A stretch of DNA of 63,534 nt, the filler included, from Planctomycetota bacterium (GTDB lineage Bacteria > Planctomycetota > Planctomycetia > JALXBF01), in NCBI GenBank assembly GCA_026991575.1. It is 6 parts of 6 records of this genome, joined end to end, with 100 filler letters (N's around TTAATTAATTAA, not from the genome) between each part and the next. Parts side by side here need not be neighbours in the genome. Positions count along the whole stretch, not along the records: positions 25,306 to 50,446 come from JALXBF010000032.1; 5 more parts are not named here. The stretch is one strand, 5' to 3'. The position numbers and the translations under genes are program-made. Within the stretch, counting starts at the first letter, position 1. Each line of letters opens with the position of its first letter. Below the pieces are notes generated by a model. It saw only the letters and a list, made by a program, of their open reading frames with translations, did no database searches and had not been told where the DNA came from. Below are positions 32,711-51,442 of this stretch, piece by piece.

Positions 32711-32715
32711 CGGTT

Positions 32716-33957: not shown

Positions 33958-33971
33958 GAAAGGCCTGAGCT

Positions 33972-34394: not shown

Positions 34395-34404
34395 GGGAAG
34401 CACG

Positions 34405-34848: not shown

Positions 34849-34857
34849 GGTGGTCTG

Positions 34858-35712: not shown

Positions 35713-35727
35713 GCGAGGAACCCTACC

Positions 35728-36678
35728 ATGCTACGACGGTTCTTATGTCAGGTTGATATTGAACTCCACATCATTCCACGCGATCCGCTTCTGGTCAAAG
35801 CCGGCTACGCTACGCTGGATACGGCCGACATGGTACCCGTTTCCACGATGCGCAACGGAGAGCAGACCCATTACTTGCCGGGAACAAGCCTGAAGGGCGT
35901 GCTTCGTAGCCATTTTGAGCGGATCGCCCGCTCGCTGGCGCCCGGTAGCGTGTGCCTGCCGTACTACGACCCAAGGCGGACCAGCGAACGGAACATCCCG
36001 GTGGAATCTGAGCGGCGTTCGTACGGCTGCGGATTCCGTAACCGAGAGGCAGCATTGACGTCGGAGCGCTACCGCGAGTCGTGTGCCGCTTGTCGCCTGT
36101 TTGGTTCCTTGAAATACGGTGGCCGCTTTACCATTGGGGACGCGTATCCACTTCCGGGCCACAAACCCACCGTGGAGCACCGCCATGGCGTCGGCATCGA
36201 CCGTTTCACGGGTGGCACGGTGCAGGGAGTACTGTTCGACCAGTGCGTTCTGGTAGGGGGCCGGTACGGCACAAGCGTGCAGATTACGAACTTCGAGCAG
36301 TGGCAACTTGCCGCAGCGCTTGTGTTGGTGAATGACATGCGCGACGAGCTGATCCCGATAGGCTCTGGACGCAGCCGTGGGCTGGGCCGGGTCACGGCCG
36401 AGGTGACGAGCGTGCGAATCTCATACACACGCCCTGTCGATCGGCTGGTTGGGCTGGCCGAGTTGGTAGACGACGCCGAGCGGGCCGCGTACGGTCTGCA
36501 CGCCTGGCAACCATCCGAACCAATCCCGCTTCCCGAGCCGCAGCGCCGCGGCATCCGCTTAAGCTACGACCTGACCGAACAGTGGGAGCGGACCATGGCC
36601 GCGTTGCTGCCTGGACTGATCGAGTACCTAACCGAACACAGTCGTCCTGGGGAAAAGCCGCAGCCAACCCGTTCGTAA
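35728..36678 (+). CDS. cas7: Cas7-group RAMP
   Basis: LPGTSLKGVLRS, CAACRLFGS, RHGVGIDRFTGG and IGSGRSRGLG. Confidence 0.88.
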   Translation: MLRRFLCQVDIELHIIPRDPLLVKAGYATLDTADMVPVSTMRNGEQTHYLPGTSLKGVLRSHFERIARSLAPGSVCLPYYDPRRTSERNIPVESERRSYGCGFRNREAALTSERYRESCAACRLFGSLKYGGRFTIGDAYPLPGHKPTVEHRHGVGIDRFTGGTVQGVLFDQCVLVGGRYGTSVQITNFEQWQLAAALVLVNDMRDELIPIGSGRSRGLGRVTAEVTSVRISYTRPVDRLVGLAELVDDAERAAYGLHAWQPSEPIPLPEPQRRGIRLSYDLTEQWERTMAALLPGLIEYLTEHSRPGEKPQPTRS

Positions 36679-36719
36679 CCGTACCACACCGAACCGGGCT
36701 CTGACGAACCGAGGTTAAT

Positions 36720-37310
36720 ATGGGTGCCATCCTGAAAGCGGGAGACGTTGGCTTGGACGCACTCGAGCAGCTACTTGCCGCGGCAGCTAACGCGTGGACC
36801 AACTATCCCGTGCGCGTCTGGCTGGATGCCCCCGATGGCTGGGCGCTGGACTGGTGGCCCGGGGACCGCGGGCAGCTCCGCTGGTACGCCGCGGGCAGAT
36901 TGCCTTCTAGCCAACCATTTAACGAACTGCTAGCCCGCTCAGAGTGGGGGCGACTCTTCTGTCCCGCCGGCGAGCTGAAGTGGCGGTGTGTCGACAGCAG
37001 AATTCCACGCCGCTATCGCGCGGTCTATTTGGGCGACGAGGACGTTGTGGGGCCGGAGCTTGCAGATCGCACCGAGCTGCTTAAGGACCTTACCCGAACG
37101 GAGCACAGGGCTTTCCTTTGGGGACAGCGCACGCAGGTGAGTGAAGGGGATTGGATCGAGCTGCGCATTCCGCACCGACTGCAGTATCCCGTTGATAAGC
37201 CTGCCCAGCGCCTCTACTTGATTACCGAGTTATGGCTTGATGGAGCGGGGGTCGTCCAGTTCCGCCGTCTCTGTGATATCCAGCCCGAAGGGAGCAGCAG
37301 CCATGCCTGA
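36720..37310 (+). CDS. csx19: Csx19-like type III-D subunit
   Basis: GRLFCPAGELKW, FLWG, RIP..LQYP and C-terminal GVVQFRRL; sits before the last RAMP. Confidence 0.65.
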   Translation: MGAILKAGDVGLDALEQLLAAAANAWTNYPVRVWLDAPDGWALDWWPGDRGQLRWYAAGRLPSSQPFNELLARSEWGRLFCPAGELKWRCVDSRIPRRYRAVYLGDEDVVGPELADRTELLKDLTRTEHRAFLWGQRTQVSEGDWIELRIPHRLQYPVDKPAQRLYLITELWLDGAGVVQFRRLCDIQPEGSSSHA

Positions 37311-38457
37311 GCAGGAATCGTTCTGGAACCCGTACCGTTGGGTCACGTATGAGAAGTCCAGGCCGAGCTACCGGAGTCCGAACTACCAGCATGCCTTTGC
37401 CGGAGCGCGCGGCCTGTTGGACTGCGAGTTGGAGGTTCTAACGCCACTGGTAATCGGCAACGGCAAGCAGGGAGCACTGGAGAATTTCACGCGCCACGGC
37501 GTTGGCGGCGTGGGCAAACCGTTCATTCCCGCTACGTCCCTCAAGGGGGCGATACGATCCCTGGCGGAACTAATTGGCGACTCGGCTGTGCCCTTCAGCA
37601 GGAAGAGAAACGCGCCTATGCGGCTCGACCCGGGAAGGTCCGTCGAGAGCGGTGCCCGAGGCCGGCCGGGCACCAACTGGGAGCTGGACCCCGTTGCTCG
37701 CTCCTTTGGCTACCTTGATCACGATGGCAACGTGTTCGCCGGATTGATCCAGTTCAGTGACGCAGAACTTGTCGGCGAACCAAACACGCAGAAATGGCCC
37801 CGCTTCGAGGTGGACGTCGGGACGCCAAGACCAGAACGGCACGCGCCGTTCTACCCCGACAACAAACGCTGGAAGTTCTATCACCACCTGCCGGGCGCAA
37901 CAACGCTCAGACCGGCGATCACGGGGCAAACCAGGCGTCCGGTCGCGGCCCCGCCAGGAACGCGATTCCGGTTCACCGTTTCGTTCTGGAATTTAGACGA
38001 GGAAGCACTAAATCTTCTGGTTTATTGCCTGGCCCTGGAAGAAGACGTCACCGTTACGCTCAGTGCCGCTGCCCTGGGACGGCCGGGCAACTCCAACGAG
38101 AGCGTTCCACTCACCGGGCCACTGAGGCACAAGATCGGCGGGTGCAAGCCGGCATGGGGAGGCAGTGTCCACATTCGCATTGTGCGGGTCCGGATCGAGG
38201 AAGACCCCCTCAGCCGCTACCGCTCGGGCCAGCCACCCACCGTCCTGGAAGACGAAGCGGAAATCCGTGCTTGGATCGAGAAGCGCACCGCAAGCATCCG
38301 CCGGCGCAACGATCGCACCATGCGTGAACTACGCGCGATGCTGATCTACAGCCCCAACGATCCGCGCCGAGACATTCGCTACCCAGACAAGAGCTGGTTC
38401 GACAGGGACAAACAGCTTCCGCCAGACCAGAAGCGAAAGCTGAAACCGACGGTGTAG
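37303..38457 (+). CDS. cas7: Cas7-group RAMP with insertion (III-D terminal subunit)
   Basis: FWNPYRWV N-terminus, IPATSLKGAIRS, KFYHH, FWNL..EAL and KIGGCKPAWGG. ATG 37303 overlaps the csx19 end. Confidence 0.8.
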   Translation: MPEQESFWNPYRWVTYEKSRPSYRSPNYQHAFAGARGLLDCELEVLTPLVIGNGKQGALENFTRHGVGGVGKPFIPATSLKGAIRSLAELIGDSAVPFSRKRNAPMRLDPGRSVESGARGRPGTNWELDPVARSFGYLDHDGNVFAGLIQFSDAELVGEPNTQKWPRFEVDVGTPRPERHAPFYPDNKRWKFYHHLPGATTLRPAITGQTRRPVAAPPGTRFRFTVSFWNLDEEALNLLVYCLALEEDVTVTLSAAALGRPGNSNESVPLTGPLRHKIGGCKPAWGGSVHIRIVRVRIEEDPLSRYRSGQPPTVLEDEAEIRAWIEKRTASIRRRNDRTMRELRAMLIYSPNDPRRDIRYPDKSWFDRDKQLPPDQKRKLKPTV

Positions 38458-38938
38458 CAGCTGCATCCCGTGTACGGGGCTCGTGCAGTGATTTCGCACG
38501 TGTTGGGTTCATTGCTGCGGCTAGCCCGGCAGCCGCACTGACGGCCACCGCGGGCCGCATCACCCATGCAGCGGTCCCGGCTGGCAGGGCCACATGCCTG
38601 TTTGCTGCCACCGATGGGATGGCCGGTTTAGGGGCGGGCCGGTTGTCGTGGATACGTGCCTCAGCTCCTTTGCCGGCATCGTCGGCCGACAGGTTGCAGC
38701 TGCGATGGCCTGCCGGTGCCGCTGGAGGAAGCGGTCGACCGGCGCGCTTGTAGTCGACGTACCCGTTCGGGTTGCCGCTGCCATGCCCGGCGCAGGCGGT
38801 TCCTTCGACGGGAGAGGGCCGGGTTGGTTTCTGTGCAGCAGAGCGTGCAAGGGGTGCAGATACTCTGCCGTTTGTGGGGGATCGGCGGAGGCTGGCTCAG
38901 CTGTTTGTGGCTCATCGGCGAGCGTGGGGGTGGAAGCC

Positions 38939-40168
38939 ATGGGCGGCAACGGTTTGAGACAATCAGTTCCATGCGAATTGCCTGAAAACGAGTTTGGCTT
39001 GCCGGACCTGAGTCTTGTTCCTGACGAATTCGAGCTGGCTGACCGCTGGATCCAGGCGTACCTTGAGCAGCTCCACCTTGCCGGAACGCAACGGCCTGCT
39101 GAGGCAGCCGGGCTGGTTTCTGCCTGGTCTGCCCTGTGGCGGATCGACCCCGTGTTGATTCGTGCAGTGCGCGCGGTCAACGGACCATGGCAGCTCGTTC
39201 CTGAACGGGACCTGTGGTGCGAGATCCTCGGTATCAGCCGCTATCGCGCAGATGAGCGCCTGTTCCGCGAGCGACTGCCGGCGCTGGCCGAAGTGGCGTG
39301 TCATGCACTGCATCCGGAGCGGTGGGCGGAGGAGGTGGGCCGGTTGGCCGAGTGTGTCGGTGAGCACGAGGAGTCGCTGAGCCGTGAGGAGCAGATCGAG
39401 CTTCTGGTGAGGTTGGACACGATGGAGTTGATCGGCTGGGCCGCGGCGCGGTGGGCTTCGCCCGGCCGGCAGGTGGCGGACGTACTGCAGGCCCTGGAAC
39501 ACGCTCGTTTGCAGCTGGGCCGATGCGCATGGCTGTTCCGCGACGCTGAGCCGTGGCTTCGATCATTCGCTCGGGCGGTCCGTTACAAAGCGGTCGACGC
39601 GGGACTGCGCACGACGCTGGCCAAGCTCCACGTACTGCTGGACGCGGCCGCTCTGGCCCGCAGTGCGCACCAGGCTGAGGGTGAGCAGCAGCTGACGTGG
39701 TCGCCGGTGCCGCAGGTCGTTGCCAGAGCGGTCGACGTGCTGCTGTCGCTTGCCGAACAGATCGCGTGCTACCACTCTCCTCGTCGAGTTATCCTGCACG
39801 CGGCAACCGCCGCGTCTTGGACGCTCGCCACGGCCGACGTCCGCTGGATCAGCCCGGACGGTCGCTACGTTGCACTGCTTGAGCTGCCCCCCGATCTGCC
39901 GACTGATGCGCTGCCAGACCGCTTGCCAGTGCGTTTCCGTCGAACGGTACGGGGCATCAGCCGCCCCGTACCGGCAGAACCGGCGACGGAACTGGCGGGG
40001 GCTCATGTGAAGTTCCTCGCGGCAGAGCACACCGTTCGTCCCGATGCTCGCATAGCGCTTGAGCCGCAGCAGCTGCTCCGCTCGCTGCGGCCGGGCACAC
40101 CGTTGACCCTTGAGCTTGTTGGTCCAGGCTGGCGACAGCACTGGCGGCTGGCCGGCACCGCGTCGTAG
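38939..40168 (+). CDS. Hypothetical protein (about 409 aa)
   Basis: Protein-like composition from ATG 38939; the upstream Cys/Gly-rich extension from 38594 looks non-coding. No recognisable motif. Confidence 0.55.
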   Translation: MGGNGLRQSVPCELPENEFGLPDLSLVPDEFELADRWIQAYLEQLHLAGTQRPAEAAGLVSAWSALWRIDPVLIRAVRAVNGPWQLVPERDLWCEILGISRYRADERLFRERLPALAEVACHALHPERWAEEVGRLAECVGEHEESLSREEQIELLVRLDTMELIGWAAARWASPGRQVADVLQALEHARLQLGRCAWLFRDAEPWLRSFARAVRYKAVDAGLRTTLAKLHVLLDAAALARSAHQAEGEQQLTWSPVPQVVARAVDVLLSLAEQIACYHSPRRVILHAATAASWTLATADVRWISPDGRYVALLELPPDLPTDALPDRLPVRFRRTVRGISRPVPAEPATELAGAHVKFLAAEHTVRPDARIALEPQQLLRSLRPGTPLTLELVGPGWRQHWRLAGTAS

Positions 40169-40386: not shown

Positions 40387-43300
40387 ATGAACATCCTGCG
40401 GCGATTATTCGGCTGGGGCGGTGAGAAACGGACGCAGGGGGCCCGACGACAAAGCGACGCTCGCCGTGGTGGTCGCGAGCCGGAGCCGGTGCCAGGCCAG
40501 CCGGAAGCTGAGACCGATCGAAAAGGTGACCAAGTCAACCAAGCGCAACGCACCGGCGGCCAGCGGAGTCGTACAACCGGGGGGCAAACGCGATCGCAGC
40601 GTTCAGAAGCCGCCACCGAGCGGGATCAGGCGCCATCGGGCCGCCTCTACTTGCAGTTCCGGGGCGCGTCTCGGGACGTAGACCGGGAAGTGAAGCTGAC
40701 GGGAGACCTTGAGAAGATCCGAGCGCGGCACAACTTCCAGGTCTTTCCACCGGGTAGCACAACCGCTCCACTGCTTGACGCCTTCATGGACATCTTTTTC
40801 CCGGACGGGTGCCAGGGTGAGTACCTGGTGGCCAACGTTAGTCTGGATCCGAAGCGACCCCGGCTGTTGATCCGTCCGGCGGTCATTTCTCCCCGGATGC
40901 GGGACGTGCTGCCCGCTGGTATTTCCCTAGCGATCAAGGGATACCTATGGGACAACCGATCGGACCCGGATAATCCCGTGTTGTACGTGAGCGAAATCGT
41001 GGACCTGAGCCACTGCGACCCGCGTCCATTTGAGCGGCGTCTCCGTGCCCAGACGATCACTGACCAGGAACATGTATTCCCAGCGTCTCGCCGCACCGCG
41101 AACTGCCTGACGCAAGAGTTCGTGCAATCTCTTCCGCTGATCTCCCGCGAGACGGACCACCGGCTGGCGGAGTGGATGACGTACCTTCGTGTCCGGGAGC
41201 GTCTCATCGCCGCTGCGGCCCGCGGGCTCCGTTATGTTGCGGTCGAGGTGACTGACGAGGGGTTGGTTCGTTTTCTGGTCGTGTGCCCGTCGGAAGCGGT
41301 GCTGCGCAGGCATGGCTTCCTGTTGCGCAGCACCGAGCTGGTGGCGGTCCCGGTGGATGACTCGTCGGATTCGTGGGAGTTCCGGCCCGATCCGGATGCC
41401 CGATTGCACGAGGAAGAGCTGGGTGAGGTGGTCGGCAAGTACGAACCTGCGAGCTTTGTGCCAGCCAGTGACATTCCATGGCCGGAGCCGTTTGCTGCTT
41501 GGTTGACGGTGCGCCCTGCGGAGCGCTTCCAGGACGAGTTTTCTGCGGCGAGTACGGAGAGCGAACGGGAAGCGGTCTGCCAGGCGATCCGCCAGGCTTA
41601 TCCGGCTGAGGGATTCCTGACGGTCTCGTCCATAGGCGACCGTGTCCTGTTGTCGCGCATGCGTGCCGCGATTCGAACGCTGCGCGAGCAGGGGGGATAT
41701 GCTCCGTTTCTGACGAGTTACTTCTTTGACATCTCACAGGCACGGGTCCCCCGGGAGCTGGTGGAAGTGCCCGAAGACCAGTGGGCTCTACGGCTGAATG
41801 ACTCCCAGCGGCACGCCGTTCGCGTCATGCTCAGTGCTCCGGACATCGCGCTGATTCAGGGGCCGCCGGGTACTGGAAAGACGACCGTGATTGCAGAGGG
41901 GGTGTATCAGTTCGTGCGTCGCGGCCGGACGGTGCTGGTGGCCTCTCAGGCAAATCTCGCCGTCGATAACGCGCTGGAGCGGCTGCCCCGAGTGCCTGAG
42001 ATCCGTGCCGTACGCCTGACGCACAAAGGCGATCCGGACAATCCGTACAGCTTAAGGAACGTGCTGTCCACCTACTACGGAAGCATTGCCGACCGCTGTG
42101 AACGGGAGACGCTCGGTCGGTTTCAGGAACTGGACGATCAACGCCCCACGCTGCAGGAGTGGCTGCAACGTGCGACGCTCGTGGAACACGATGCCGATGA
42201 AGCTCGTAGGTTGCTTGCTGAACGTGAGCGCACGTGGCGCAGCGTCTGTGATCGACTCGAGCGTGCGCGGCGGCTGAATCAGCGGGTTGAGCGTGCCCGG
42301 CAGGAGGCGGATGCGGTTCTTGCGTGCGCGGATCTGATCGATGGCGCCGCGGTGACCGCCGCAGCGACCACTGTCCCTGAACACGTTTCCAATGAGATCG
42401 CGCGTGAACTCATCGGGCCGCTCACGGAGCGCCTTCGAACAGCTGGCTTTGCCTTGAGCGATGCCTCTTCTGCCGGCACGACCACCGCGCCATTGGGGAC
42501 GCGCCTGCAACGCGTGCTGAAGCGGTGGGAGCAAGTCCACCGGGCGGCCGCGCGACTCAGGCAAGACCTCACCACGGCAGAGCGGCAAACGGGCGAGACG
42601 TTCATTGACCCGAAGCTGAACGAGGAGATCCAGGAGCTGCGCGCTTACCAGCAGACCCTGGCGAAGCAGCTCGAAACGGACGCGAGTGTTCTGCGAGAAT
42701 TCCAGGATGTGAGCAGGAAGCTGCGTGAGCTCCAATCGTCGGCCACCGCCGCGCTGGACCTGGACTGGTACCGCGGCCTCCTACGCAGCGACCACGTGCT
42801 ACTGCGGCCCGATCTGACGCGGGCTGCCGTAGTCGAGCAACTCTCTGGGCTGCTTGCGGCGATCGAGCAGATCGACAGCTGGCTTCGCTCTAGCCGCCGC
42901 GCTCTGGTCACCTGGCTGCGTCAGGAGGCGGTGCGGTTGCGTCGGGCTGCCGGCGAGCCGACGGCGACCGATGGCCTCGAAGCCGAGTGCCGGGTGGCGG
43001 AGGCGGAACTGCGCGACACGCGCCGCCGGCTGGAGGACGTTGAGCGAAGGATCGAGCAGCTGCGGCAGGAGGCATGCCGGCGGTGGCACATCGACCAGGG
43101 CGAGCTGGCCGCATGCCGGCAGCAGGTGGACGCACGACTCCGTGAACTCACCAGGCAAGCTAACGACCTGGCCCCCCTGCGCGAGGCCTGCGAAGGCCTG
43201 CTCCGCTGGTGGGTCGGGGCTCTGCGCGATCGAAATCGTGCTGCTAGGGACCAGGCAACCTTTCTCGACACGTACATACAGAGCTGTAACGTCGTCGGGG

Positions 43301-44487
43301 TGAGCTGCACGGAGAACCCGCGCACGCTCGAAAGCCACGGCCATACCTCGTTCGATGTCGTGATTGTCGACGAAGTCAGCAAGGTCACGCCCCCCGAGCT
43401 GCTGATCCCGCTGCTTCGCGGCCGCGTCGCGATTCTCGTCGGCGACCATCGCCAGCTGCCGCCGCTGTTTCGAGACACCGGCCTGAGCTGGGAAGAGGTG
43501 CGCGAGGAAGTAACCGCCGCCAGTGCTTCGGAAGGGGGCGACGAGGACGGCGACGACGATGCGTTGCCGCTGTCAGTGTTTTCCGACGAGCAGTGGGGCC
43601 GATTCCGGCGGATGGTGACCTCCAGTCTGTTCAAGGAGCTCTTCGAGACGGCCCCCGAGCCGCTTCGCGCGTTTCTGACAATCCAGTACCGCATGCACCC
43701 TCAGATCATGGAGGTGGTGAACTATTTCTACGACCACTTGCTTGAGTGCGGTCTGGCGAATGCCGACAGCGGTCCGGACGGTCGCGCACACGGCATCACG
43801 CTATGTGGACCGCGCGGCCGGCCCTACCTGACCCCAGACGTGCACGTCCTCTGGGTCGACACCAGCGTCGGCCCCCAGGGCAGGCCTTTCTTTGAGGAGT
43901 CCATGGGCACAAGCAAGGTGAACCGCCTTGAGGCTGCGGTAATTGCTTGGCTGCTCGGTGAACTTGACGACGCATTCGGTCGGCTCGGCTATGGCTCCAG
44001 TGGCAGGGCGGCCAAGCGCGTCGGGGTGGTCAGCTTCTACGGCCGCCAGATTCGGGCGATTCGTGAAAGCCAGCGGCGGTTGCAGCGGTTCCGGTCGCGC
44101 GCGTACCGAGCCATTCGGGTCGATATCGACACGGTGGATCGCTACCAGGGAAGGGAGCGGCCCGTGATCCTTGTCAGCTTGGTGCGCAGGCCACGCAGGC
44201 GGCTATCCCCGCATGCACTGACGGCCCAATACCAGCGAATCAATGTCGCGCTTTCCCGCGCGCAGGAGTTGCTCATTATCGTCGGGTCATGCGAGGTGTT
44301 CCAGAAGTATCCGGTCGACTTGCCGTACGTGCAGAGACCGGGCAGCAGAAAGGTGCCCGTGTACCGGTACATCGTCGACCACGTTGGCCGGATGGGGGGG
44401 CTGGCCCGGCTGTGCGATGTCGCCACGCGCGATCAGTTGCACGATCTGCTCTGGCAGCCAGCAGGTTTGAGAGAGGCGAGATTATGA
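40387..44487 (+). CDS. SF1B DNA2/NAM7/UPF1-like helicase with large coiled-coil insertion
   Basis: IQGPPGTGKTT, SQANLAVDNAL, VIVDEVSK, VGDHRQLPP, QYRMHP, TVDRYQGRE and RINVALSRA. About 400 helical residues lie between motifs Ia and II. Confidence 0.92.
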   Translation: MNILRRLFGWGGEKRTQGARRQSDARRGGREPEPVPGQPEAETDRKGDQVNQAQRTGGQRSRTTGGQTRSQRSEAATERDQAPSGRLYLQFRGASRDVDREVKLTGDLEKIRARHNFQVFPPGSTTAPLLDAFMDIFFPDGCQGEYLVANVSLDPKRPRLLIRPAVISPRMRDVLPAGISLAIKGYLWDNRSDPDNPVLYVSEIVDLSHCDPRPFERRLRAQTITDQEHVFPASRRTANCLTQEFVQSLPLISRETDHRLAEWMTYLRVRERLIAAAARGLRYVAVEVTDEGLVRFLVVCPSEAVLRRHGFLLRSTELVAVPVDDSSDSWEFRPDPDARLHEEELGEVVGKYEPASFVPASDIPWPEPFAAWLTVRPAERFQDEFSAASTESEREAVCQAIRQAYPAEGFLTVSSIGDRVLLSRMRAAIRTLREQGGYAPFLTSYFFDISQARVPRELVEVPEDQWALRLNDSQRHAVRVMLSAPDIALIQGPPGTGKTTVIAEGVYQFVRRGRTVLVASQANLAVDNALERLPRVPEIRAVRLTHKGDPDNPYSLRNVLSTYYGSIADRCERETLGRFQELDDQRPTLQEWLQRATLVEHDADEARRLLAERERTWRSVCDRLERARRLNQRVERARQEADAVLACADLIDGAAVTAAATTVPEHVSNEIARELIGPLTERLRTAGFALSDASSAGTTTAPLGTRLQRVLKRWEQVHRAAARLRQDLTTAERQTGETFIDPKLNEEIQELRAYQQTLAKQLETDASVLREFQDVSRKLRELQSSATAALDLDWYRGLLRSDHVLLRPDLTRAAVVEQLSGLLAAIEQIDSWLRSSRRALVTWLRQEAVRLRRAAGEPTATDGLEAECRVAEAELRDTRRRLEDVERRIEQLRQEACRRWHIDQGELAACRQQVDARLRELTRQANDLAPLREACEGLLRWWVGALRDRNRAARDQATFLDTYIQSCNVVGVSCTENPRTLESHGHTSFDVVIVDEVSKVTPPELLIPLLRGRVAILVGDHRQLPPLFRDTGLSWEEVREEVTAASASEGGDEDGDDDALPLSVFSDEQWGRFRRMVTSSLFKELFETAPEPLRAFLTIQYRMHPQIMEVVNYFYDHLLECGLANADSGPDGRAHGITLCGPRGRPYLTPDVHVLWVDTSVGPQGRPFFEESMGTSKVNRLEAAVIAWLLGELDDAFGRLGYGSSGRAAKRVGVVSFYGRQIRAIRESQRRLQRFRSRAYRAIRVDIDTVDRYQGRERPVILVSLVRRPRRRLSPHALTAQYQRINVALSRAQELLIIVGSCEVFQKYPVDLPYVQRPGSRKVPVYRYIVDHVGRMGGLARLCDVATRDQLHDLLWQPAGLREARL

Positions 44488-46838
44488 AGTGTCGTGCGCA
44501 GATCTGGGTGCCGGCCATCGAGTACACCGCCACGGTCACCGTTGCGCTACCGCGGCACGCAAACGTGTTCGAGGAGGCGATCCTGAGGGTATGCGCACAA
44601 CTGGCTAACCACCAAGACTACGGCAGCTACACCTGGCGGCAAGTTTTCGAGGAACTCCTCCATGTGCCGCAAGCAGATCGAGTGGTCGGGCCAGTGCTGC
44701 AAGGCCTTATCGATCTCGGTGCATTGAGTACCAACACACCGGGCCAGGAGCTCATGGACATCCCGGTACGGCGGTTCCAGATTCGTAGCCAGGGGCAACA
44801 GCTTCTGGAACGGGGCGAACTGCCGGCAAACCCCCAAGAATACTCCGTGACGGTTTACTACGACCCGATCGAGCACAGAGTGCTGGACAGAGTCCCGTTG
44901 GCAGACGCCCCCGGCGAAGCAGCGCTTCAGCCGCCGGAGCAGCCGGTCGAACCGCGTGAGCACGTGCGGCTATGGCTTGAGCGGAATCCCACGCAATACT
45001 GGCCGGCTTCGTGCCAGATCCTCTCCTGCCGGCTCAGCGCACTCGGGCAGAAGTGGCGGTGTGTGCCGTGTGTGCTGGAACTGAGAGATGGCGAGTTGGT
45101 GTTTCAGGCCGAAAGCTCGGCTCTTGCCGAGTACGTCGAAGCGCTGGACGCCCAGAAGGCGGCGGCTCTGGTGCAGCACCTTGTCGAGCCGCCAGGAAGT
45201 GTGACTGCGCCGGTGACCGCCACCTTGCCAGAGGTTGACCTTCGCGGCGCGGCTGTGGGGGAGGGTGAACAGTGGACGACGCTCCGCGACGCATTCGAAC
45301 AAGTCAGTCGCTCGAGCGGTGTGGCGATCGTGCACGCCGCCTGGGCCGAGTGCCTCAAGCTTTCTACGCCTCGCTCGTCCACCCTCATCTTCGCGGCCGA
45401 TGGCGGTTGCCAACATGAACCGGCCGTCGTGGCAGAAAGAGACCGTGTTGTCATCCGGACGGAGCGGCGGCCCCGGATGGCTGGATTCGTTGCAGCAACC
45501 GAGGACGCAGTGTTCTGGGCGGCTCACGTGACGGTTCGCCTGGCGCGCGGGACGGCACGCTTCGTACTCGCGCGGCGCGATAGCGAACCGCACGCACTCG
45601 CCGCCCGGGCGGACTTCCTTCGTTCGCTTGCCCTGGAACTGATGCGCAGCGGCGACGAACGTGCATCGCTGCCCGCTCGGTGGCTGAAGGAACGCGACTA
45701 TTGCACACTGTTGGTCCAAGCCGCCCGCGACCATTCGGAGGATCTTGGCCAACGGTGCGCGTTCCTGACGGACGTTCTGACTCGGCTGCCCGAGCAGGCC
45801 GGCTTTAGCCCAAAGCAGCTGGCGAGCACGTTCCTGGCGTTGCTGGACGAGCAGCAAGGGCCCGTTCCATGTGGTCATGGCATCGCGGTCATCCAGGCCG
45901 CCTGCCGGTTGGCCGGATTCGCTCCCGGCATACCACGCCGCATTGCCGACTGGATTGCATCCCGTGTGGCAGCAGCGTCGCTTGCAGAATACGAGCAATT
46001 AAGGCGCGCCATGTGCCGCCTGCTACCCAACTGGCGGCCCCACGAGGGAGCGCCGCTTTACACGGAGAGCCTCCTGCGGGAAGCGTGTCACGCGATTGCC
46101 CGCTCAAGTCGGCTGCCGCTGCAGTCGGACAACAAGCTGGAGGAGATCTTGCTGCGGCTGCACCGTCAGTGGCAACAGCTACGTTCGCGTCTTGGTGATG
46201 ACTTTGTGGCAGAGCGTTTCTCTGCGGATGACATGCACTCGGTGGCGGAGCGCCTGCTGACGGATCCGCAGGCTCTCGGCTCGGCACAGGCGTTCCTCGC
46301 GCTCTGGCAACGGGCCTGTGGTCGGTTCCGGCTACTGGCGAAGGCGGGAGCGGAGAGCGCTCTGGGACAAGTGATCGATCGGCTAGAGCGTCTGGTCCAG
46401 CAGTGGGACGAACTTGCTACGGAACGGCCCATCCGAGTGCTCTTCGACACGTCGGCGCTGATGGTTGCCCCGGAAGCGCTGCGGGCGGTGAAGCACTGCG
46501 AAGTGCTGATCCCCTCTGTGGTGCTGGAGGAGCTGGACGAGCTGAAGACACGCTGGCACAAGCAGCAGGCGGCCCGCAAGGCGATTCGCCTTCTGGAGGA
46601 GTTACGTCCTCACCTGCGTATCGTGCCGGTAAGGCCCGACCAGCTACCGGCCGGTGCCAGCCTCAGTGCGGACAACCTGATCCTCTCGGCCGCCATGGCC
46701 AGCAAGGATCAAAGCGTCGTCGTGCTCGTCTCGGAAGACCGGAACCTGAGGGTGAAAGCAACCGGTGCCGGAATCCACGCCATGACGGTCGACGAGTTCA
46801 ACGGCTTCTGGTGCCAGCGTTGGGGGAGCAGTTGGTAG
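44484..46838 (+). CDS. Large protein with C-terminal PIN ribonuclease domain (PhoH2/Smg6/Swt1-like)
   Basis: FDTSALM, IPSVVLEELDELK, ADNLIL and VSEDRNLRVKA supply the acidic PIN residues. ATGA overlap with the helicase stop at 44484-44487. Confidence 0.85.
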   Translation: MKCRAQIWVPAIEYTATVTVALPRHANVFEEAILRVCAQLANHQDYGSYTWRQVFEELLHVPQADRVVGPVLQGLIDLGALSTNTPGQELMDIPVRRFQIRSQGQQLLERGELPANPQEYSVTVYYDPIEHRVLDRVPLADAPGEAALQPPEQPVEPREHVRLWLERNPTQYWPASCQILSCRLSALGQKWRCVPCVLELRDGELVFQAESSALAEYVEALDAQKAAALVQHLVEPPGSVTAPVTATLPEVDLRGAAVGEGEQWTTLRDAFEQVSRSSGVAIVHAAWAECLKLSTPRSSTLIFAADGGCQHEPAVVAERDRVVIRTERRPRMAGFVAATEDAVFWAAHVTVRLARGTARFVLARRDSEPHALAARADFLRSLALELMRSGDERASLPARWLKERDYCTLLVQAARDHSEDLGQRCAFLTDVLTRLPEQAGFSPKQLASTFLALLDEQQGPVPCGHGIAVIQAACRLAGFAPGIPRRIADWIASRVAAASLAEYEQLRRAMCRLLPNWRPHEGAPLYTESLLREACHAIARSSRLPLQSDNKLEEILLRLHRQWQQLRSRLGDDFVAERFSADDMHSVAERLLTDPQALGSAQAFLALWQRACGRFRLLAKAGAESALGQVIDRLERLVQQWDELATERPIRVLFDTSALMVAPEALRAVKHCEVLIPSVVLEELDELKTRWHKQQAARKAIRLLEELRPHLRIVPVRPDQLPAGASLSADNLILSAAMASKDQSVVVLVSEDRNLRVKATGAGIHAMTVDEFNGFWCQRWGSSW

Positions 46839-46886
46839 CCGAACAGCGATCGGCTCAGGCCGCTTGCCACCGACGAGGGCGAGACT

Positions 46887-48779
46887 ATGCAGAGCACACG
46901 TGAGAACCAGTGGCTGGCAAACTTCAAGCGCGAAGCGGGGGTGCGGCGGTGCTTGATCGTCTACGGCAACGTGGCGGATCTGTGCTATGACCGCGACACG
47001 GGCACGTACGCACCCGTGCGCGATGTGATCGTTCGAGCATTGCTGCAGAAGGGGTTCGACCACGTCGCAATCTGGGATGCCGTCTGCGGGCTGTCGAACC
47101 TGGATGCCGACGTGCAGCGCAGGCTGGTTCACCGGGCGGCCTACGGTGCTGAGCGGCAGGAGGGGGAAGCGGCGGATGGCGGGGCTGGCGGCGGGCAGCC
47201 GTATGACCTCGGCGGGCCTGCACCGGGCCCGACCAGCGGTCAAGCCACACCGGCCGTGGAGACGTTGGAAGATTTCCTGGCAATTGTGCATGCCCAGTTT
47301 GTTGACCCGATTCGGGAGCGGATTGCGTTCGTGGTCGATCTGGCCGACTACCTCTTCGGCAATGCCAACGCGCTCTCCGACGCGGAGCGCCGGGCGCTGC
47401 TGGTCTTGTCCCGTGCTCTGGCCTATCGCGGCACACTGCTTGAGGGTGCCGACACCCTAACCAAGCCGGACAACCTGGTCGTGTTCTTGTGCCGTTCGCT
47501 TGGTGCCATCCCACCGGTCCTTTACCAGGGAAATCCGGCGGTGACCCAGCTACCGGTGCCTCAGCCGGGTCGCGTGGAGCGAGAAAACTTCGTGTCGCGC
47601 CATATCGATGTGTTCCGGCTCCGTTCTCCGCTCCAAGCCGGCACGCTCCCCTTCGACGACTTCGTCGACCGGCTCGACGGCCTGACGCTGACGGACCTGT
47701 TCCAGCTCGTTCGGCTGTCGCGTCAGTCCGGCCCAGAACCGCTTTCCGCCGAGCAGTTGGTCAGTCTCTACAAGTACGGCGAACGCACGAGCCCATGGGA
47801 AGAGTTGAGCCGCGAGAAGCTGGCGACGATTGAAGAGGCACTGAAGCGGCGTGTGAAAGGCCAGGACGAAGCCGTGCGCAAGGTGGCCGATGTCATTATC
47901 CGTGCCTACACTGGGCTTGCCGGCTTGCAGCATTCCCGCAAGCAGCGCATGCCCAAGGGCGTTCTGTTCTTCGTCGGTCCGACCGGTGTGGGCAAGACGG
48001 AACTGGCCAAAGCGCTGGCGGAGTTCCTGTTCGGCGACGAGGAGTCGTGCATTCGCTTCGACATGTCGGAATACAACCTGGAGCACAGCGACCAGCGGCT
48101 TATCGGTGCGCCGCCAGGCTATGTCGGCTACGAGGAGGGAGGGCAGCTGACGAACGCAGTGCGCGAACGTCCGTTCTCGGTGCTGCTCTTTGACGAGATC
48201 GAGAAGGCGCACGTCAGGATCCTGGACAAGTTCCTGCAGATCCTGGAGGACGGTCGCCTGACGGACAGCCGAGGTGAGACGGTCTACTTCTCGGAGACGG
48301 TCATCGTGTTCACGTCAAACATCGGCGCTGCCGAGATCCCCCCGGACCTGCCGCCGGAAGAAGTCAAACAGCAGTTCCTGCACAAAGTACGTCGTCACTT
48401 TGTGGAAGTGGCTGGTCGTCCAGAGCTCCTGAACCGCATCGGCGATAACATTGTGCCGTTCAACTTCATCACTTCGAGCGACTTCCTGGTGGAGATCGCG
48501 CGCGCGAAGATCCAGCCGATTCGTGAACGGCTGCGCGAGAAGTACGGCATCCGCGACTTTGTGTTCAACGACGAACAGCGTGCCCTGCGAGCTATCGCCG
48601 CTCAGGTGGATCGTGCCATGGGAGGCCGAGCTGTGGTGAACGAAATCGTCAGCCGAATCATCAACCCGCTGGCTCGCTTCCTGTTCGAGAACGCGACCGA
48701 CCCACGCTACTACAGGGAACGGATCGTAAAAGCGTACCAGGTCGAGAACCGGGCGGAATTCGTGTTCACTCTTGAGTAG
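46887..48779 (+). CDS. AAA+ ATPase with a ClpB-like NBD2 and a divergent N-terminal half
   Basis: GPTGVGKTE, RFDMSEY, GAPPGYVGY, LFDEIEKAH and GRLTD. No Clp N-domain and no canonical NBD1 Walker A. Confidence 0.88.
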   Translation: MQSTRENQWLANFKREAGVRRCLIVYGNVADLCYDRDTGTYAPVRDVIVRALLQKGFDHVAIWDAVCGLSNLDADVQRRLVHRAAYGAERQEGEAADGGAGGGQPYDLGGPAPGPTSGQATPAVETLEDFLAIVHAQFVDPIRERIAFVVDLADYLFGNANALSDAERRALLVLSRALAYRGTLLEGADTLTKPDNLVVFLCRSLGAIPPVLYQGNPAVTQLPVPQPGRVERENFVSRHIDVFRLRSPLQAGTLPFDDFVDRLDGLTLTDLFQLVRLSRQSGPEPLSAEQLVSLYKYGERTSPWEELSREKLATIEEALKRRVKGQDEAVRKVADVIIRAYTGLAGLQHSRKQRMPKGVLFFVGPTGVGKTELAKALAEFLFGDEESCIRFDMSEYNLEHSDQRLIGAPPGYVGYEEGGQLTNAVRERPFSVLLFDEIEKAHVRILDKFLQILEDGRLTDSRGETVYFSETVIVFTSNIGAAEIPPDLPPEEVKQQFLHKVRRHFVEVAGRPELLNRIGDNIVPFNFITSSDFLVEIARAKIQPIRERLREKYGIRDFVFNDEQRALRAIAAQVDRAMGGRAVVNEIVSRIINPLARFLFENATDPRYYRERIVKAYQVENRAEFVFTLE

Positions 48780-49407
48780 GATGACTGCTGTTGGAGATGG
48801 CCGTGCTGAGCAGCGCTCGGAACGAGGCCAGATCGAGAAGCGGATAGCCATTGGCCATGACCGTGCCGTCGGTGCAAATCCGGATTTCCATGGACGGCCG
48901 GTACCGGGGATCGTATTCGATGCCCGGCTGATAGCGATCCGTCAGGAAGTGGAACCGCTGGTTGCGGGAGCCAACCCAGTTCCGTTCGTGGTCCGGTTGA
49001 TCCTGGAGGTAAGGGCCGTCGACGACGACGTCGCACCAGCGGAGCAGTTCCCACGCACCTGGGAGGTCGAGCGCATCCAGCTGCTCGAGGCGGTATCCCG
49101 TGAACAGCATCACCGAGAGTCCCGCCTGTTGCGCCCGGCGAGCCACGACCGCCAGACCACGTGCCTGCAACAGCGGTTCGCCGCCCAGTAGCGTTATCCC
49201 CTCCAGCGCATGGGTCCGGGCAGCACGCACCACCCGCTCGGCAAACTGGTCTGCGTCGACAACGTGGCGGGGTACCAGCTCGAACATGTGAGGGTTGCAG
49301 CAGCCGGGACAGCGCAGCAGACAGCCCTGCACCCACAGCGCGAACCGCCTTCCCGGTCCTTCAGCCTCAGTGCACTCCAGCCAGGCTGCCAGGTTAAGCT
49401 TCGGCAT
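48766..49407 (-). CDS. Radical SAM protein (NrdG-like, single 4Fe-4S cluster)
   Basis: EGPGRRFALWVQGCLLRCPGCCNP (CxxxCxxC), GGEP, FTGY, DGPY and GSRNQR. Confidence 0.9.
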   Translation of the reverse strand: MPKLNLAAWLECTEAEGPGRRFALWVQGCLLRCPGCCNPHMFELVPRHVVDADQFAERVVRAARTHALEGITLLGGEPLLQARGLAVVARRAQQAGLSVMLFTGYRLEQLDALDLPGAWELLRWCDVVVDGPYLQDQPDHERNWVGSRNQRFHFLTDRYQPGIEYDPRYRPSMEIRICTDGTVMANGYPLLDLASFRALLSTAISNSSHPTQE

Positions 49408-49447: not shown

Positions 49448-50446
49448 TTAGCGAGTGATTCCGCGGGCATGACTCAACGGTTCGGCACCTTTCTTGATCC
49501 GGTCCGGGTTCTGCCAGAACACGCGCCGCTCGGTTACCGGTAGGCCATAGACCTCCTGCAGCAACTTCATCACAGCATCCACGTCCTTCCGACACTCCAT
49601 GCCCTCGTAGCCATCCAGCTTGTAGTGGACACGGCCTTCCCTGTCCACGGCCAGCCAGCTGACCTGGCCGGCAGGCTTGCGCGCCTGGATGATAACCAGG
49701 TCCCTACCCTGTTCGGTTCGGTGCATCGGGGGTTGGACGGCGAAACCGACCTGATTCAACGCCTGGATCACCGAACGAACGATCTGTTTGCGGTGCTCTT
49801 CATTGAAGGCCGGTTCTGCTGTGTCACCTCCGGCCATGCCACTCAACGTGCGCACGGCGTTTTTCAATTCTCGAGCGGCCTCCTGCTGGGTCGTCGTACC
49901 CTGAGCCAGCGCTTCGCGCAGCCGCCGGAGCGCATCCAGAGCGGCCCGAGCTGCCTGGTCCTCCCGCTGTTCCTCCCGCAACTGCTCCTCGCCTTCAGCA
50001 AGCGCTGCTTCGACCAACTCCATCGTCGCGCGGCGCTCTTCCTCGGCCAGTTCGGTGTGCCACTGTGCGGCCCTTGCCGCAGCATCTTGCCGGATCTGTT
50101 CGATCCTCTGCCGGACAGTTGCAACGGCATCTTCAGGACTGCTCAGGGCAACGATCTGGTCGACTTGGTCCATCAGCTCGCGGAGCTGCTCCACCGCAAA
50201 GTCCCGCTCAATCGGATCGGCCAGTGCGGCCATCGCATCGGCAATCTGAAGGCGGATCTCCTCAGCGACCTGTGGCGCGCCCTGTGGAACCGGCCGGTAA
50301 CTGAGGCCCGCCGTAGCCTGCAACCGTTGCTTACGCACGCGCTGCCCCGCTTCACGCACGTGCCGTCTGCCGGCGGCAACCTGCCGCTCACGCCGTTCCC
50401 TGCGCAGCCGGCGTGCTGCCCGTGGTAGTGGTCCGACCAGCTGACC
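49448..50446 (-). CDS. Coiled-coil protein with DUF2997-like C-terminal domain (5' partial)
   Basis: Frame open to the contig edge. Long helical region, then AVDREGRVHYKLDGYEGMECRKDV resembling the DUF2997 dG.v...v.G..G..C pattern. Confidence 0.55.
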   Translation of the reverse strand, partial: GQLVGPLPRAARRLRRERRERQVAAGRRHVREAGQRVRKQRLQATAGLSYRPVPQGAPQVAEEIRLQIADAMAALADPIERDFAVEQLRELMDQVDQIVALSSPEDAVATVRQRIEQIRQDAAARAAQWHTELAEEERRATMELVEAALAEGEEQLREEQREDQAARAALDALRRLREALAQGTTTQQEAARELKNAVRTLSGMAGGDTAEPAFNEEHRKQIVRSVIQALNQVGFAVQPPMHRTEQGRDLVIIQARKPAGQVSWLAVDREGRVHYKLDGYEGMECRKDVDAVMKLLQEVYGLPVTERRVFWQNPDRIKKGAEPLSHARGITR

Positions 50447-50888: not shown

Positions 50889-51442
50889 GTTTCAATCGCA
50901 TCTTGGTTCGATTGGTCAGCGTGACTTATCGTGCGGTCTGCCCTAGTAGGAGAACGCCCTAGGTTTCAATCCCATCGTGGTTCGATTGGCCGGTGCGACC
51001 TCGAAATGCCTTTCGTTTCCCAAAATCCTGCTTACGGTTTCAATCCCATCGTGGTTCGATTGGCCGGTGCGACTCCCCGAAGTTCCTCACGTACTTGCGG
51101 TAGTTCGCCGTTTCAATCCCATCGTGGTTCGATTGGCCGGTGCGACCTGGGAGTTGGGATTGGCGCTCCGCGACGAAAAGTGGGTTTCAATCCCATCGTG
51201 GTTCGATTGGCCGGTGCGACATACGTAAATGTATTTTCAGTTGATTTTAAAACGTTGGTTTCAATCCCATCGTGGTTCGATTGGCCGGTGCGACTGAAGA
51301 GTCTGAAGGACGATCCAGGGTGGAATTATATGTTTCAATCCCATCGTGGTTCGATTGGCCGGTGCGACGATGGCAAACACATTGGTCTTTTAACATTAAA
51401 AGATGGTTTCAATCCCATCGTGGTTCGATTGGCCGGTGCGAC
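50889..51442 (-). CRISPR. CRISPR array: 8 repeats of 37 bp and 7 spacers of 36-37 bp
   Basis: Repeat (+) GTTTCAATCCCATCGTGGTTCGATTGGCCGGTGCGAC at 50963, 51037, 51110, 51184, 51258, 51332 and 51406, plus a 6-mismatch copy at 50889. The minus-strand repeat ends in ATTGAAAC, and the degenerate copy marks the trailer. Confidence 0.97.

Follow-up and report, generated by a model that had tools for sequence, protein, structure and literature searches.

A conserved five-gene cassette with a UPF1-like helicase, a PIN-domain protein and a ClpB-type ATPase, possibly a new defence system, within a type III-D CRISPR locus

We analysed a stretch of 63,534 nucleotides, filler included, from a Planctomycetota bacterium (assembly GCA_026991575.1), which we call the window. 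Three genes follow each other on its plus strand. The first (40387..44487) encodes an SF1B helicase of the UPF1/MkoA-like type (1366 amino acids), the second (44484..46838) a protein of 784 amino acids with a C-terminal SMG6-type PIN domain, and the third (46887..48779) a ClpB-NBD2-type AAA+ ATPase of 630 amino acids. ORF calling thus recovered the three co-oriented genes of the original prediction at the same positions. The first two genes overlap in an ATGA at 44484-44487, which we read directly from the sequence; its internal ATG starts the 784-amino-acid protein, and a purine run, GAGAGAGG, lies just 5' of it. The proposed translational coupling of helicase and PIN protein stands, as does the 48-bp gap between the PIN and ATPase genes (46838 to 46887). 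The three genes are genuine: their GC3 is 0.73-0.77, their products match Pfam families, and they have full-length homologues elsewhere.

Two more genes, missed in the first reading, lie on the minus strand directly downstream of the ATPase gene. Gene Y (48766..49407) encodes a NrdG-like radical-SAM protein of 213 amino acids, counted from a conserved methionine; its ORF remains open to 49470. It is convergent with the ATPase gene, and the 3' ends of the two overlap by 14 bp. The readable part of gene X (49448..50359; 303 amino acids) encodes no known domain, and its ORF runs upstream into a run of N's, so that its start is unreadable within the window. A database protein of 433 amino acids (P0213) is identical to X across the readable part.

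A CRISPR array, also missed at first, lies at 50889..51442, probably oriented on the minus strand. It has seven identical 37-nt repeats (seven exact matches, with none expected by chance), one degenerate repeat with six mismatches at the low-coordinate end, nearest X, and seven spacers, each about 36-37 nt long. Read as its reverse complement, the repeat ends in ATTGAAAC, which we take to be typical of type I and type III systems. On the other side of the helicase gene, type III-D effector genes occupy 30276..38457 on the plus strand, in the order Cas10, Csm3/Cas7, Csx10/Cas5, Cas11/Csm2, two Cas7, Csx19 and a large Cas7. The last of these ends 1.9 kb upstream of the helicase gene, in agreement with the roughly 2 kb that had been noted. 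Because X, Y and the array are all located downstream, the five genes sit between the cas genes and the array. The space between the cas genes and the helicase gene holds a plus-strand ORF of 524 amino acids (38594..40168) that we could not assign to a family: it had no sequence match in Pfam, PADLOC, NCBIfam or the PDB, and it was not found beside related cassettes. The helicases of two related loci (L001 and L004) have long N-terminal extensions, and these did not match the 524-amino-acid protein.

Homologues of the three plus-strand genes do co-occur, and strictly so. In all nine related loci with enough sequence (four contigs from metagenome-assembled genomes and five distinct plasmid loci), the order is fixed as helicase, PIN protein, X (about 380 amino acids), ATPase and Y. 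A tenth related contig, which is truncated, carries PIN-X-ATPase. When we ran tblastn with the window proteins, every PIN-family gene whose locus was fetched (L001-L004; L005 is truncated) had the helicase gene directly upstream and the ATPase gene downstream, and in L001-L004 X lies between the PIN and ATPase genes and Y after the ATPase gene. The RefSeq annotation of the five plasmid loci gives the identical five-gene order. Among 72,556 plasmids, the N-domain of the ATPase and X match the same 10 records. The window carries both on its minus strand, X being matched there at E = 3e-29 and Y at E = 7e-74 (51% identity). Across the nine other cassettes, identity to the third gene is 24-35% for the window's X, and identity to the fifth is 44-58% for its Y. 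The three flagged genes are thus part of a conserved, horizontally mobile five-gene cassette. The conserved unit is not the three-gene operon that had been proposed, and a model built on that trio omits two conserved components, X and the radical-SAM protein Y. The window's version is rearranged, with X and Y inverted onto the minus strand directly after the ATPase gene, so its genes form two convergent units (helicase-PIN-ATPase and X-Y).

The helicase begins with a low-complexity extension rich in R, G and Q (residues 1-103), followed by a family-specific N-domain (about 104-460) that Pfam does not match. A helical insertion of some 350 amino acids lies between Walker A (at 492) and DEVS (at 995), and RecA2 extends to about 1310. 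It matches AAA_11 (5e-39) and AAA_12 (8e-35) in Pfam, MkoA (6e-100) and MkoC (9e-33) in PADLOC, and SMUBP-2, DNA2 and UPF1/NAM7 among PDB sequences, which agrees with its earlier assignment to the UPF1/DNA2/MkoA type. It shares 29-39% identity with the protein encoded first in each of the nine related cassettes, and the motifs GPPGTGKTT, DEVSK, VGDHRQLPP, QxRMHP, RYQG and INVAxSRA are kept in 10 of 10 loci.

Three regions make up the PIN protein: residues 1-366 form a beta-rich N-domain, 369-647 a helical-repeat region, and 650-780 the SMG6-type PIN domain (PIN_4, 4e-20). Its AF2 model (pLDDT 88) was searched against the PDB, and the top fold matches of the PIN domain were SMG6 (2hww; E = 1e-5, 29% identity), Nmd4 (8rdd and 8rd3, both solved bound to Upf1) and SMG5, in support of a PIN domain of the SMG6/Nmd4 type. 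The acidic positions D655, E683, D730 and D752 are kept in 9 of 9 loci. The family comprises 297 representative clusters at E ≤ 1e-3 (100 at E ≤ 1e-10). Of the five proteins, this one evolves fastest (mean pairwise identity 22%).

The ATPase is the most conserved component, at 47-61% identity to its counterparts. A family-specific N-domain (1-300) that lacks a Walker A motif precedes a module of the ClpB-NBD2 type (AAA_2, 1e-50) and a D2-small domain. Walker A (GPTGVGKTE), Walker B (LFDEIEKA), the pore loop (GYVG), sensor-1 (TSN) and RPELLxR are kept in 10 of 10 loci, so that the protein is a ClpB NBD2 whose pore loop is of the threading kind. The catalytic motifs of the helicase, the PIN protein and the ATPase are all intact, as first described, and identical or nearly so across the loci compared. 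The N-domain of the ATPase had no sequence match in Pfam or the PDB and no similarity to the protein's own AAA module by hhalign; judged by sequence comparison, it is a separate family of its own.

The readable part of X consists of a long helical region and a small alpha/beta C-terminal domain. It had no match in Pfam, NCBIfam or PADLOC, and its AF2 model (pLDDT 77) had no PDB fold match below E = 0.1. The cassette keeps all its enzymatic motifs; Y has the motifs CxxxCxxCC and GGEP, matches Fer4_12 in Pfam (6e-32), and scores 91 bits against the NCBIfam NrdG model (6e-26; the cutoff is 126). We saw no glycyl-radical-type partner motif in X by eye. A radical-SAM enzyme nearest to glycyl-radical activases sits awkwardly with an aerobic host, and the hosts include the aerobes Acinetobacter and Polaromonas.

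The position of the cassette raises the possibility that it serves the type III-D system here in an accessory or effector role, clearing RNA or DNA after target detection. X and Y lie immediately downstream of the array, on the strand of its putative transcript. Cas10 has an intact GGDD cyclase motif and no HD nuclease domain, and the locus ORFs that we scanned gave no CARF or SAVED match. Helicase-nuclease pairs also appear among the non-CARF type III accessory genes in the accessible text of an earlier paper (PMC6546367). Against this, none of the eight related loci with flanking sequence has a cas gene, according to PADLOC searches of the flanks and RefSeq annotation, and the cassette therefore looks autonomous. 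Nor were CARF or SAVED domains detected in the five proteins, the only CARF match (E = 1e-3) falling within the helicase's helical insertion. The 524-amino-acid ORF and a UvrD_C-like ORF of 1573 amino acids in the locus are equally possible effectors, and defence genes often cluster without joint function. We consider an accessory role quite unlikely.

The flanks of the related loci speak partly for and partly against a defence role. At E ≤ 1e-6, PADLOC matches occur near four of the eight loci with flanks: a methyltransferase and PDC-S70 in one, a type I S subunit and PDC-S26 in the second, a VakA-like kinase and a pVip-like enzyme in the third, and pVip-like and NsnC-like proteins in the fourth. 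The annotation of all five plasmid loci shows ArdA, IS elements, integrases or genes of plasmid replication no more than 10 kb away. There was no PADLOC match near the other four (L001, L003, L006 and L010); this is a raw count over eight loci. Matches at this level need care, because two PADLOC matches elsewhere in the window turned out to be housekeeping genes, RpoD (matched as "MzaA") and DnaG (matched as "RT_UG29").

The cassette might instead have nothing to do with immunity. It could be a maintenance or competition module of plasmids or other mobile elements, or a cellular machine for RNA-protein quality control in which the helicase strips RNA, the PIN domain cuts it and the unfoldase clears bound protein. 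Ten plasmid records carry the cassette, which adjoins repABC in one of them. Every part also has a housekeeping analogue: mRNA decay has UPF1-SMG6, and disaggregation has ClpB. However, its spread is sparse and patchy (Planctomycetota, Desulfobacteraceae, and Alpha-, Beta- and Gammaproteobacteria), unlike that of a housekeeping system: it is on 10 of 72,556 plasmids, and a scan with one subfamily's patterns found five loci in 185,579 species genomes. Its components evolve fast, and its neighbours include restriction, viperin-like and CRISPR genes. A role outside immunity seems rather unlikely to us. The cassette was not found in the phage collection that we searched or in complete E. coli genomes, which is uninformative on function.

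Reading function from context, we favour a new defence system of the helicase-nuclease class, autonomous and directed against phages or plasmids; we judge this about equally likely to be right or wrong. The UPF1-like 5'-3' helicase and the coupled PIN protein would form a sensor-effector pair, which would load either on foreign RNA or on intermediates of replication or transcription that contain RNA. Recognition might lie in the variable helicase N-terminus and the N-domains of the PIN protein: the extension before the common helicase core ranges from 13 to 558 amino acids across loci, and this range, together with the 22% identity of the PIN protein, suits recognition parts under diversifying pressure. 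The PIN domain would then cut RNA, by analogy to UPF1 with SMG6 or Nmd4. A hexameric, single-ring unfoldase with its pore loop intact may remodel or release a protein component and so turn the nuclease on; its target might be X or a phage protein, or else some part of the PIN protein that is inhibitory. Y may supply a required SAM-dependent radical step, by modifying a partner protein or nucleic acid or by making a small-molecule product. The scheme as a whole is our best guess, and the unfoldase switch and the radical step are its weakest parts.

The division of the window's genes into two convergent units would allow separable modules, as in restriction-modification: X and Y would put a radical-SAM mark on host nucleic acid or protein, and the helicase, PIN protein and ATPase would attack unmarked molecules. 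Y is strongly conserved (50% mean identity), like a housekeeping modifier, and the PIN protein diverges fast. But in the nine other loci the genes are tightly packed and the ATPase gene always separates X from Y, so the split is seen once. Y is also nearest to the protein-activating NrdG and PflA, not to known nucleic-acid-modifying radical-SAM families, and PIN_4 and SMG6-type domains are, to our knowledge, RNases and not DNases. We regard such a scheme as improbable.

Returning to the autonomous defence system that we favour, the combination of genes has no name in the libraries and literature that we searched, as was originally supposed: PADLOC, NCBIfam, Pfam and RefSeq give no system name for the PIN protein or X, and a full-text literature search found no description of the cassette. 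Y resembles the NrdG and PflA activases, its best families, in its CxxxCxxC cluster and GGEP SAM motif, but it falls below every curated cutoff and no glycyl-radical enzyme is encoded near it. Viperin is a precedent for a radical-SAM enzyme in defence, and viperin models match Y only at 1e-3 to 2.5e-7. The ATPase (P0003) shares a ClpB-like single AAA+ module with PDC-M37 (PDC-M37B, 2e-33) and Dodola (DolA/DolB; DolB, 1e-19). Membership in either is ruled out: the matches span the AAA_2 module only, and searches of the cassette proteins turned up no DolA, DUF6414 or PDC-M37A partner. The core of nonsense-mediated decay (UPF1 with SMG6 or Nmd4) shares the helicase family and the PIN fold class, which the cassette encodes as a translationally coupled pair. 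Unlike that core, the cassette has no UPF2 or UPF3 counterparts, its helicase has no UPF1 CH zinc-knuckle domain that Pfam detects, and its PIN protein carries 650 amino acids of unrelated N-terminal domains.

Mokosh (types I and II; MkoA/MkoB and MkoC) likewise combines a COG1112/Upf1-like SF1B helicase with a nuclease, and the available text on Mokosh notes the resemblance of its helicase to Upf1 (10.1101/2022.05.11.491447). The original prediction saw a three-gene variant of Mokosh, with an MkoA-type helicase, PIN in place of PLD and an added unfoldase. Only the helicase family survives of this likeness. The MkoA model covers just the helicase part (profile positions 548-1082 of 1112), leaving out the N-domain and the helical insertion that are the cassette helicase's own. 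The cassette has neither the PLD nuclease nor the Ser/Thr kinase of type I; its nuclease is an SMG6-type PIN on a separate protein, and it has three more conserved genes, for X, the ClpB-type unfoldase and the radical-SAM enzyme, making five and not three. Membership in Mokosh is thus contradicted, and we find the variant highly unlikely. A 2026 preprint describes bacterial neighbourhoods with a Upf1-like helicase domain and a PIN nuclease domain (10.64898/2026.09.30.754977). In these neighbourhoods, the two domains are in one protein beside a Tiamat-like GHL ATPase, and the accessible text mentions no unfoldase, X or radical-SAM enzyme. As far as that text goes, the pairing of a Upf1-like helicase with a PIN domain recurs in candidate defence loci.

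The helicase, the PIN protein and the AAA+ ATPase are encoded on the plus strand of the window at 40387-44487 (1,366 aa), 44484-46838 (784 aa, counted from its ATG) and 46887-48779 (630 aa). The PIN gene overlaps the helicase's stop codon as ATGA, the ATPase gene starts 48 bp after the PIN gene, and GC at third positions is 0.73-0.77 in all three genes. The original prediction had placed the ORFs at these positions, and our ORF read-out, with the ATGA read directly, agrees with it. The motifs that it described as intact are all intact, and they are kept in every relative that we aligned. It had also treated the trio as the unit, but the conserved unit, as seen in loci from MAGs and from plasmids, is a cassette of five genes, which includes X (a protein without a known domain) and Y (a small NrdG-like radical-SAM enzyme). 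The finding is real, and it is richer than the trio.

To define this unit, we scanned genomes, one for each species, using an alignment of 10 PIN-family sequences, which samples just one subfamily. This identified five loci, in MAGs labelled as Gemmataceae, Desulfobacteraceae, Gammaproteobacteria, Planctomycetota, and one unclassified bacterium. Four of the loci are long enough to show the neighbours. In all four, the gene directly upstream of the PIN gene encodes a helicase that shares 37-39% identity with the window's, and an ATPase gene (58-61% identity) lies downstream of the PIN gene after a gap of 1.1-1.4 kb. The gap is occupied by gene X (381-451 aa), and the ATPase is followed by gene Y, which encodes a radical-SAM protein of about 200 amino acids (Fer4_12, 2e-32). 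In the fifth, a contig of 3.3 kb, the genes are PIN-X-ATPase. In one MAG locus (L003), the PIN-family gene at 5451-8003 is full-length by tblastn, yet it is broken into shorter ORFs in the ORF scan; this may reflect frameshifts or assembly errors. A long ORF of that locus (11116-14232) resembled a Y fusion at first sight; since its frame differs from that of Y and no family matches it, we treated it as spurious.

We also searched 72,556 plasmids with tblastn, using the family-specific N-domain of the ATPase and X as queries. The N-domain matched 10 records and X matched the same 10, so the two co-occur strictly. Six of these plasmids are from Moellerella wisconsensis, and there is one each from Polaromonas naphthalenivorans CJ2, Acinetobacter sp. 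WCHA55, Photobacterium toruni, and Leisingera thetidis. They represent five distinct loci, and in the RefSeq annotation each has the same five tightly packed genes in the same order: "AAA domain-containing protein" (the helicase), "PIN domain-containing protein", "hypothetical protein" (X), "AAA family ATPase", and "4Fe-4S single cluster domain-containing protein" (Y).

Overall, the gene set is conserved, and the order helicase-PIN-X-AAA+-Y was found in all nine related loci with full sequence. Only the window's copy, among ten loci, has X and Y inverted. With the proteins of the scan loci as queries, Y was found right behind the ATPase gene on the minus strand (48766-49407; 51% identity, E = 7e-74), and X follows it on the same strand (49448-50359; E = 3e-29). 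This layout cannot be derived from the canonical order by a single inversion, and thus fits a divergent lineage. Across the ten loci, the mean pairwise identity is 55% for the ATPase, 50% for Y, 34% for both the helicase and X, and 22% for the PIN protein. The cassette is about 10 kb in size and occurs in five or more phyla or classes of bacteria and on conjugative plasmids.

None of the five proteins has a specific name in NCBIfam (as of June 2026), and we found no description of the five-gene set in the full-text literature. The statement that the combination is not a named system therefore holds in these texts and in the libraries that we searched. Supplementary tables and subscription journals lie outside this search, so the set may have been listed before as an unnamed candidate.

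The helicase belongs with AAA_11 (5e-39) and AAA_12 (8e-35) in Pfam, and PADLOC's MkoA models match it strongly (PDLC03920, E = 6.3e-100; PDLC03921, 1.8e-82). The closest solved structures by sequence are SMUBP-2, DNA2, and UPF1/NAM7. The core that is common to the loci corresponds to residues ~104-1340 of the window's protein; it has a helical insertion of about 350 amino acids between Walker A and the DExx box, and its N-domain has no match in Pfam. Residues 1-103 (40387-40695) are an extension, probably disordered, with many Arg, Gly, and Gln residues, which occurs in the window's copy only. Across the loci, the extension ahead of the core varies from 13 to 558 amino acids, and these extensions are unrelated to the window's. 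An NCBIfam model called "PLuB" matches the helicase weakly; we did not find this name in the full texts searched.

In the PIN protein, Pfam identifies PIN_4 at residues 654-768 (4e-20), and PADLOC has no match. A word-index search returned only the query itself, while an exhaustive HMMER search showed a family with 297 representative clusters at E ≤ 1e-3, of which 100 reach E ≤ 1e-10. Proteins of about 800 amino acids with a common N-terminal region and a C-terminal PIN domain make up most of the family. We modelled the protein with AlphaFold2 (mean pLDDT of 88, from 51 sequences). The top PDB fold match of the PIN domain is human SMG6 (E = 1e-5, 29% identity), and further matches include SMG5 and yeast Nmd4, among them an entry solved on the Upf1 helicase domain. 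The first 650 residues form a beta-rich part and then helical repeats, for which PDB gave no convincing fold match (only helical-repeat matches with high rmsd). The cassette contains UPF1-type and SMG6-type folds.

The ATPase matches AAA_2 (1e-50), and among solved structures it is closest to the second nucleotide-binding domains of ClpB, ClpC, and Hsp104. The module has Walker A and B, sensor 1, the arginine finger region, and a GYVG pore loop, and judging from sequence the protein is of the ClpB NBD2 type. Of the ClpB model TIGR03346, positions 552-835 align with residues 308-604, and the score (288 bits) falls short of the cutoff of 1232. The 300-residue N-domain is a family of its own that lacks Walker A, and it has no sequence match in Pfam or PDB. 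Its beta-strand and Walker-B-like patterns suggested a degenerate AAA fold, but this is no more than a guess; hhalign against the protein's own AAA module gave a probability below 1%.

In the window, the ORF of X extends upstream into Ns, and the database protein (P0213, 433 aa) is identical over the readable 303 amino acids. (The window contains five pairs of 44-N runs, ten in all, and one pair breaks the 5' part of X.) X has no family in Pfam, NCBIfam, or PADLOC. The model (pLDDT of 77) has long helices and then a small alpha/beta domain that holds most of the invariant residues, and no PDB fold match has E < 0.1. The strongest local one, to 85 residues of the N-domain of spermine synthase, does not seem meaningful to us.

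In Y, C50, C54, C57, and GGEP are invariant across all 10 sequences, and a CxxxCxxCC motif is present. The closest families are NrdG (6e-26) and then PflA, but Y falls under every curated cutoff (for NrdG, 91.2 bits versus 126.1). No glycyl-radical enzyme was found in the cassette. X was considered for this role, but by eye it has no RVxG[FYW]-type motif, which we take to be the glycyl-radical motif. Prediction of a complex of X and Y stayed below the mark in both runs, which counts neither for nor against binding.

Upstream of the window's cassette is a type III-D effector operon (30276-38457, plus strand) that encodes Cas10, copies of Cas7/Csm3, Csx10, Cas11, and Csx19. Its Cas10 (30276-31925) is short (549 aa), keeps the GGDD cyclase motif, and lacks the HD domain. 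On the other side of the cassette is a CRISPR array (50889-51442) with seven identical 37-nt repeats, one degenerate repeat, and seven spacers. In a plain ORF list the array reads as a 260-aa ORF (50931-51713), and the original prediction overlooked it. The array appears to be transcribed on the minus strand, because the degenerate repeat is at the X-proximal end and because of the motif at the repeat's end, which we presume to be a sign of orientation; X and Y would therefore be just downstream of the array. With the cas operon on one side and the array on the other, the cassette is embedded in the CRISPR-Cas locus.

No cas6, cas1, or cas2 was found among the ORFs scanned. After the cas operon is a 524-aa ORF (38594-40168, plus strand) with no detectable family, and a 1,573-aa ORF with only weak matches to UvrD_C and AAA_22 flanks the operon (25387-30108, plus strand); each might be an accessory gene of the type III system or a defence gene in its own right. 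Just past the leader inferred for the array are a LigT-like 2H phosphoesterase (52143-52736; 2_5_RNA_ligase2, 6e-38) and a 1,288-aa Ser/Thr kinase-TPR protein (52909-56775) that matches PADLOC's PD-T4-6 models. That the phosphoesterase adjoins a cOA-producing type III system is possibly of interest.

Could the cassette be a functional partner of the type III-D system in this genome? The locus has no recognised cOA effector (no CARF or SAVED protein was recognised in it), which leaves room for such a partner. However, the association is seen in the window only: PADLOC and the annotations show no cas gene at any of the eight related loci for which flanks are available. Also, CARF and SAVED have no significant match in any cassette protein, and the sole CARF line from PADLOC (E = 1.3e-3) falls in the helical insertion of the helicase. 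Type III accessory genes without CARF do exist, according to the accessible portion of PMC6546367, so a functional link would not require CARF or SAVED. We consider such a partnership quite unlikely, and the cassette looks like an autonomous, mobile unit.

Within 10 kb of the cassette, every one of the five plasmid loci carries IS elements, integrases, ArdA, or replication genes. Among the eight related loci with flanks, PADLOC matched flanking genes in four and none in the other four. The matches are a methyltransferase and PDC-S70 at one locus, a type I S subunit and PDC-S26 at another, a VakA-like kinase and a pVip-like enzyme at a third, and pVip-like and NsnC-like proteins at the fourth. 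This is suggestive of residence in defence islands, although eight loci are far from a statistic. Beside the cassette, the Acinetobacter plasmid has a VakA-like kinase and a viperin-like radical-SAM gene (12733-14715 of L008), and the Photobacterium plasmid has two radical-SAM genes (1-1496 of L009). These extra radical-SAM genes may be a coincidence or a recurring partnership.

The remainder of the window is chromosomal (dnaG, rpoD, an ABC transporter, peptidases). At 17025-20687, PADLOC matches to "MzaA" (6.5e-68) and "RT_UG29/RTasDnaG-like" (8e-52) were rejected as defence neighbours, as Pfam identifies these genes as the housekeeping rpoD and dnaG; this is an example of the cross-matches of defence models that need to be filtered. 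A protein at 61771-62865 has a Por_Secre_tail domain (type IX secretion sorting), which gives a clue to the phylum that the DNA comes from.

Given these results, we lean modestly towards the cassette being a defence system of the helicase-nuclease kind. The helicase and the PIN protein might be a sensor-effector pair that acts on RNA, the unfoldase might thread a protein and so switch or reset the complex, and Y might provide a needed modification or product; we have much lower confidence in these specific steps than in the assignment to defence. More ambitiously, the cassette could be an RNA-surveying immune machine of bacteria, in which a UPF1 and SMG6/Nmd4-type PIN pair, as in eukaryotic nonsense-mediated decay (NMD), depends on two surprising partners, a Hsp104/ClpB-type unfoldase and a radical-SAM enzyme, and which here may serve as the missing effector arm of the HD-less type III-D system. 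We view this as rather improbable. If true, it would be a prokaryotic relative of the NMD core turned on viruses.

If the cassette defends cells, it would be a new multi-gene system in the helicase-nuclease class, where to our knowledge ClpB-type unfoldases and NrdG-like radical-SAM enzymes have little or no worked-out role. A UPF1-like helicase with an SMG6-like PIN domain would also offer a bacterial model of how such a pair recognises and cuts RNA, and the pairing bears on the possible roots of the eukaryotic decay machinery in prokaryotic conflict systems. Because the cassette is on sequenced plasmids of culturable bacteria, it is open to direct testing. The copy inside a type III-D locus without a recognised effector is a specific case for cooperation of CRISPR with another system.

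Among known systems, Mokosh was the model for the original prediction, which saw a Mokosh-like module with PIN in place of PLD. Mokosh is defined, in the available part of 10.1101/2022.05.11.491447, by a COG1112 helicase and a PLD nuclease, to which type I adds a kinase. The cassette shares just the Upf1-like (COG1112) helicase. In type I the kinase is on the helicase protein, whereas the window's helicase (P0001) has no Pkinase match and aligns to the MkoA profile only at positions 548-1082 of 1112; and none of the five proteins matches PLD or MkoB, whereas Mokosh has its PLD nuclease in MkoB or the C terminus of MkoC. The kinase part of MkoA does match the 1,288-aa kinase-TPR protein (3.5e-35), whose gene is separate from the helicase gene, beyond the array, and absent from the related loci.

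The likeness to Dodola and to the PADLOC candidate PDC-M37 is confined to the generic ClpB-type module of the ATPase. For Dodola, DolB matches the AAA module only (1.4e-19), and no cassette protein matches DolA/DUF6414; for PDC-M37, PDC-M37B matches residues 306-491 only (2e-33), and no cassette protein matches PDC-M37A. The ClpB/Hsp104 disaggregase itself has two rings (NBD1 and NBD2) and an M-domain, whereas the cassette's ATPase has NBD2 alone. Y has the radical-SAM cluster and SAM motifs of the glycyl-radical activases (NrdG/PflA) but is under the family cutoff and has no cognate glycyl-radical enzyme nearby. With the NMD core (UPF1-SMG6), the cassette shares the UPF1-family helicase core and an SMG6-class PIN domain with four acidic residues; this likeness is borne out by PDB sequence matches, by the SMG6, Nmd4, and SMG5 folds, and by the acidic residues. 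In contrast, Pfam found no UPF1 CH domain in P0001, and there are no genes for UPF2/UPF3 partners near the cassette. A preprint on Tiamat from 2026 describes, in its accessible part, fusions of Upf1-like helicases and PIN domains in some neighbourhoods, and that part does not mention the other three genes of the cassette (10.64898/2026.09.30.754977). What is new here is the five-gene cassette, unnamed in the libraries searched, in which an unfoldase and a radical-SAM enzyme accompany a helicase-PIN pair like that of NMD.
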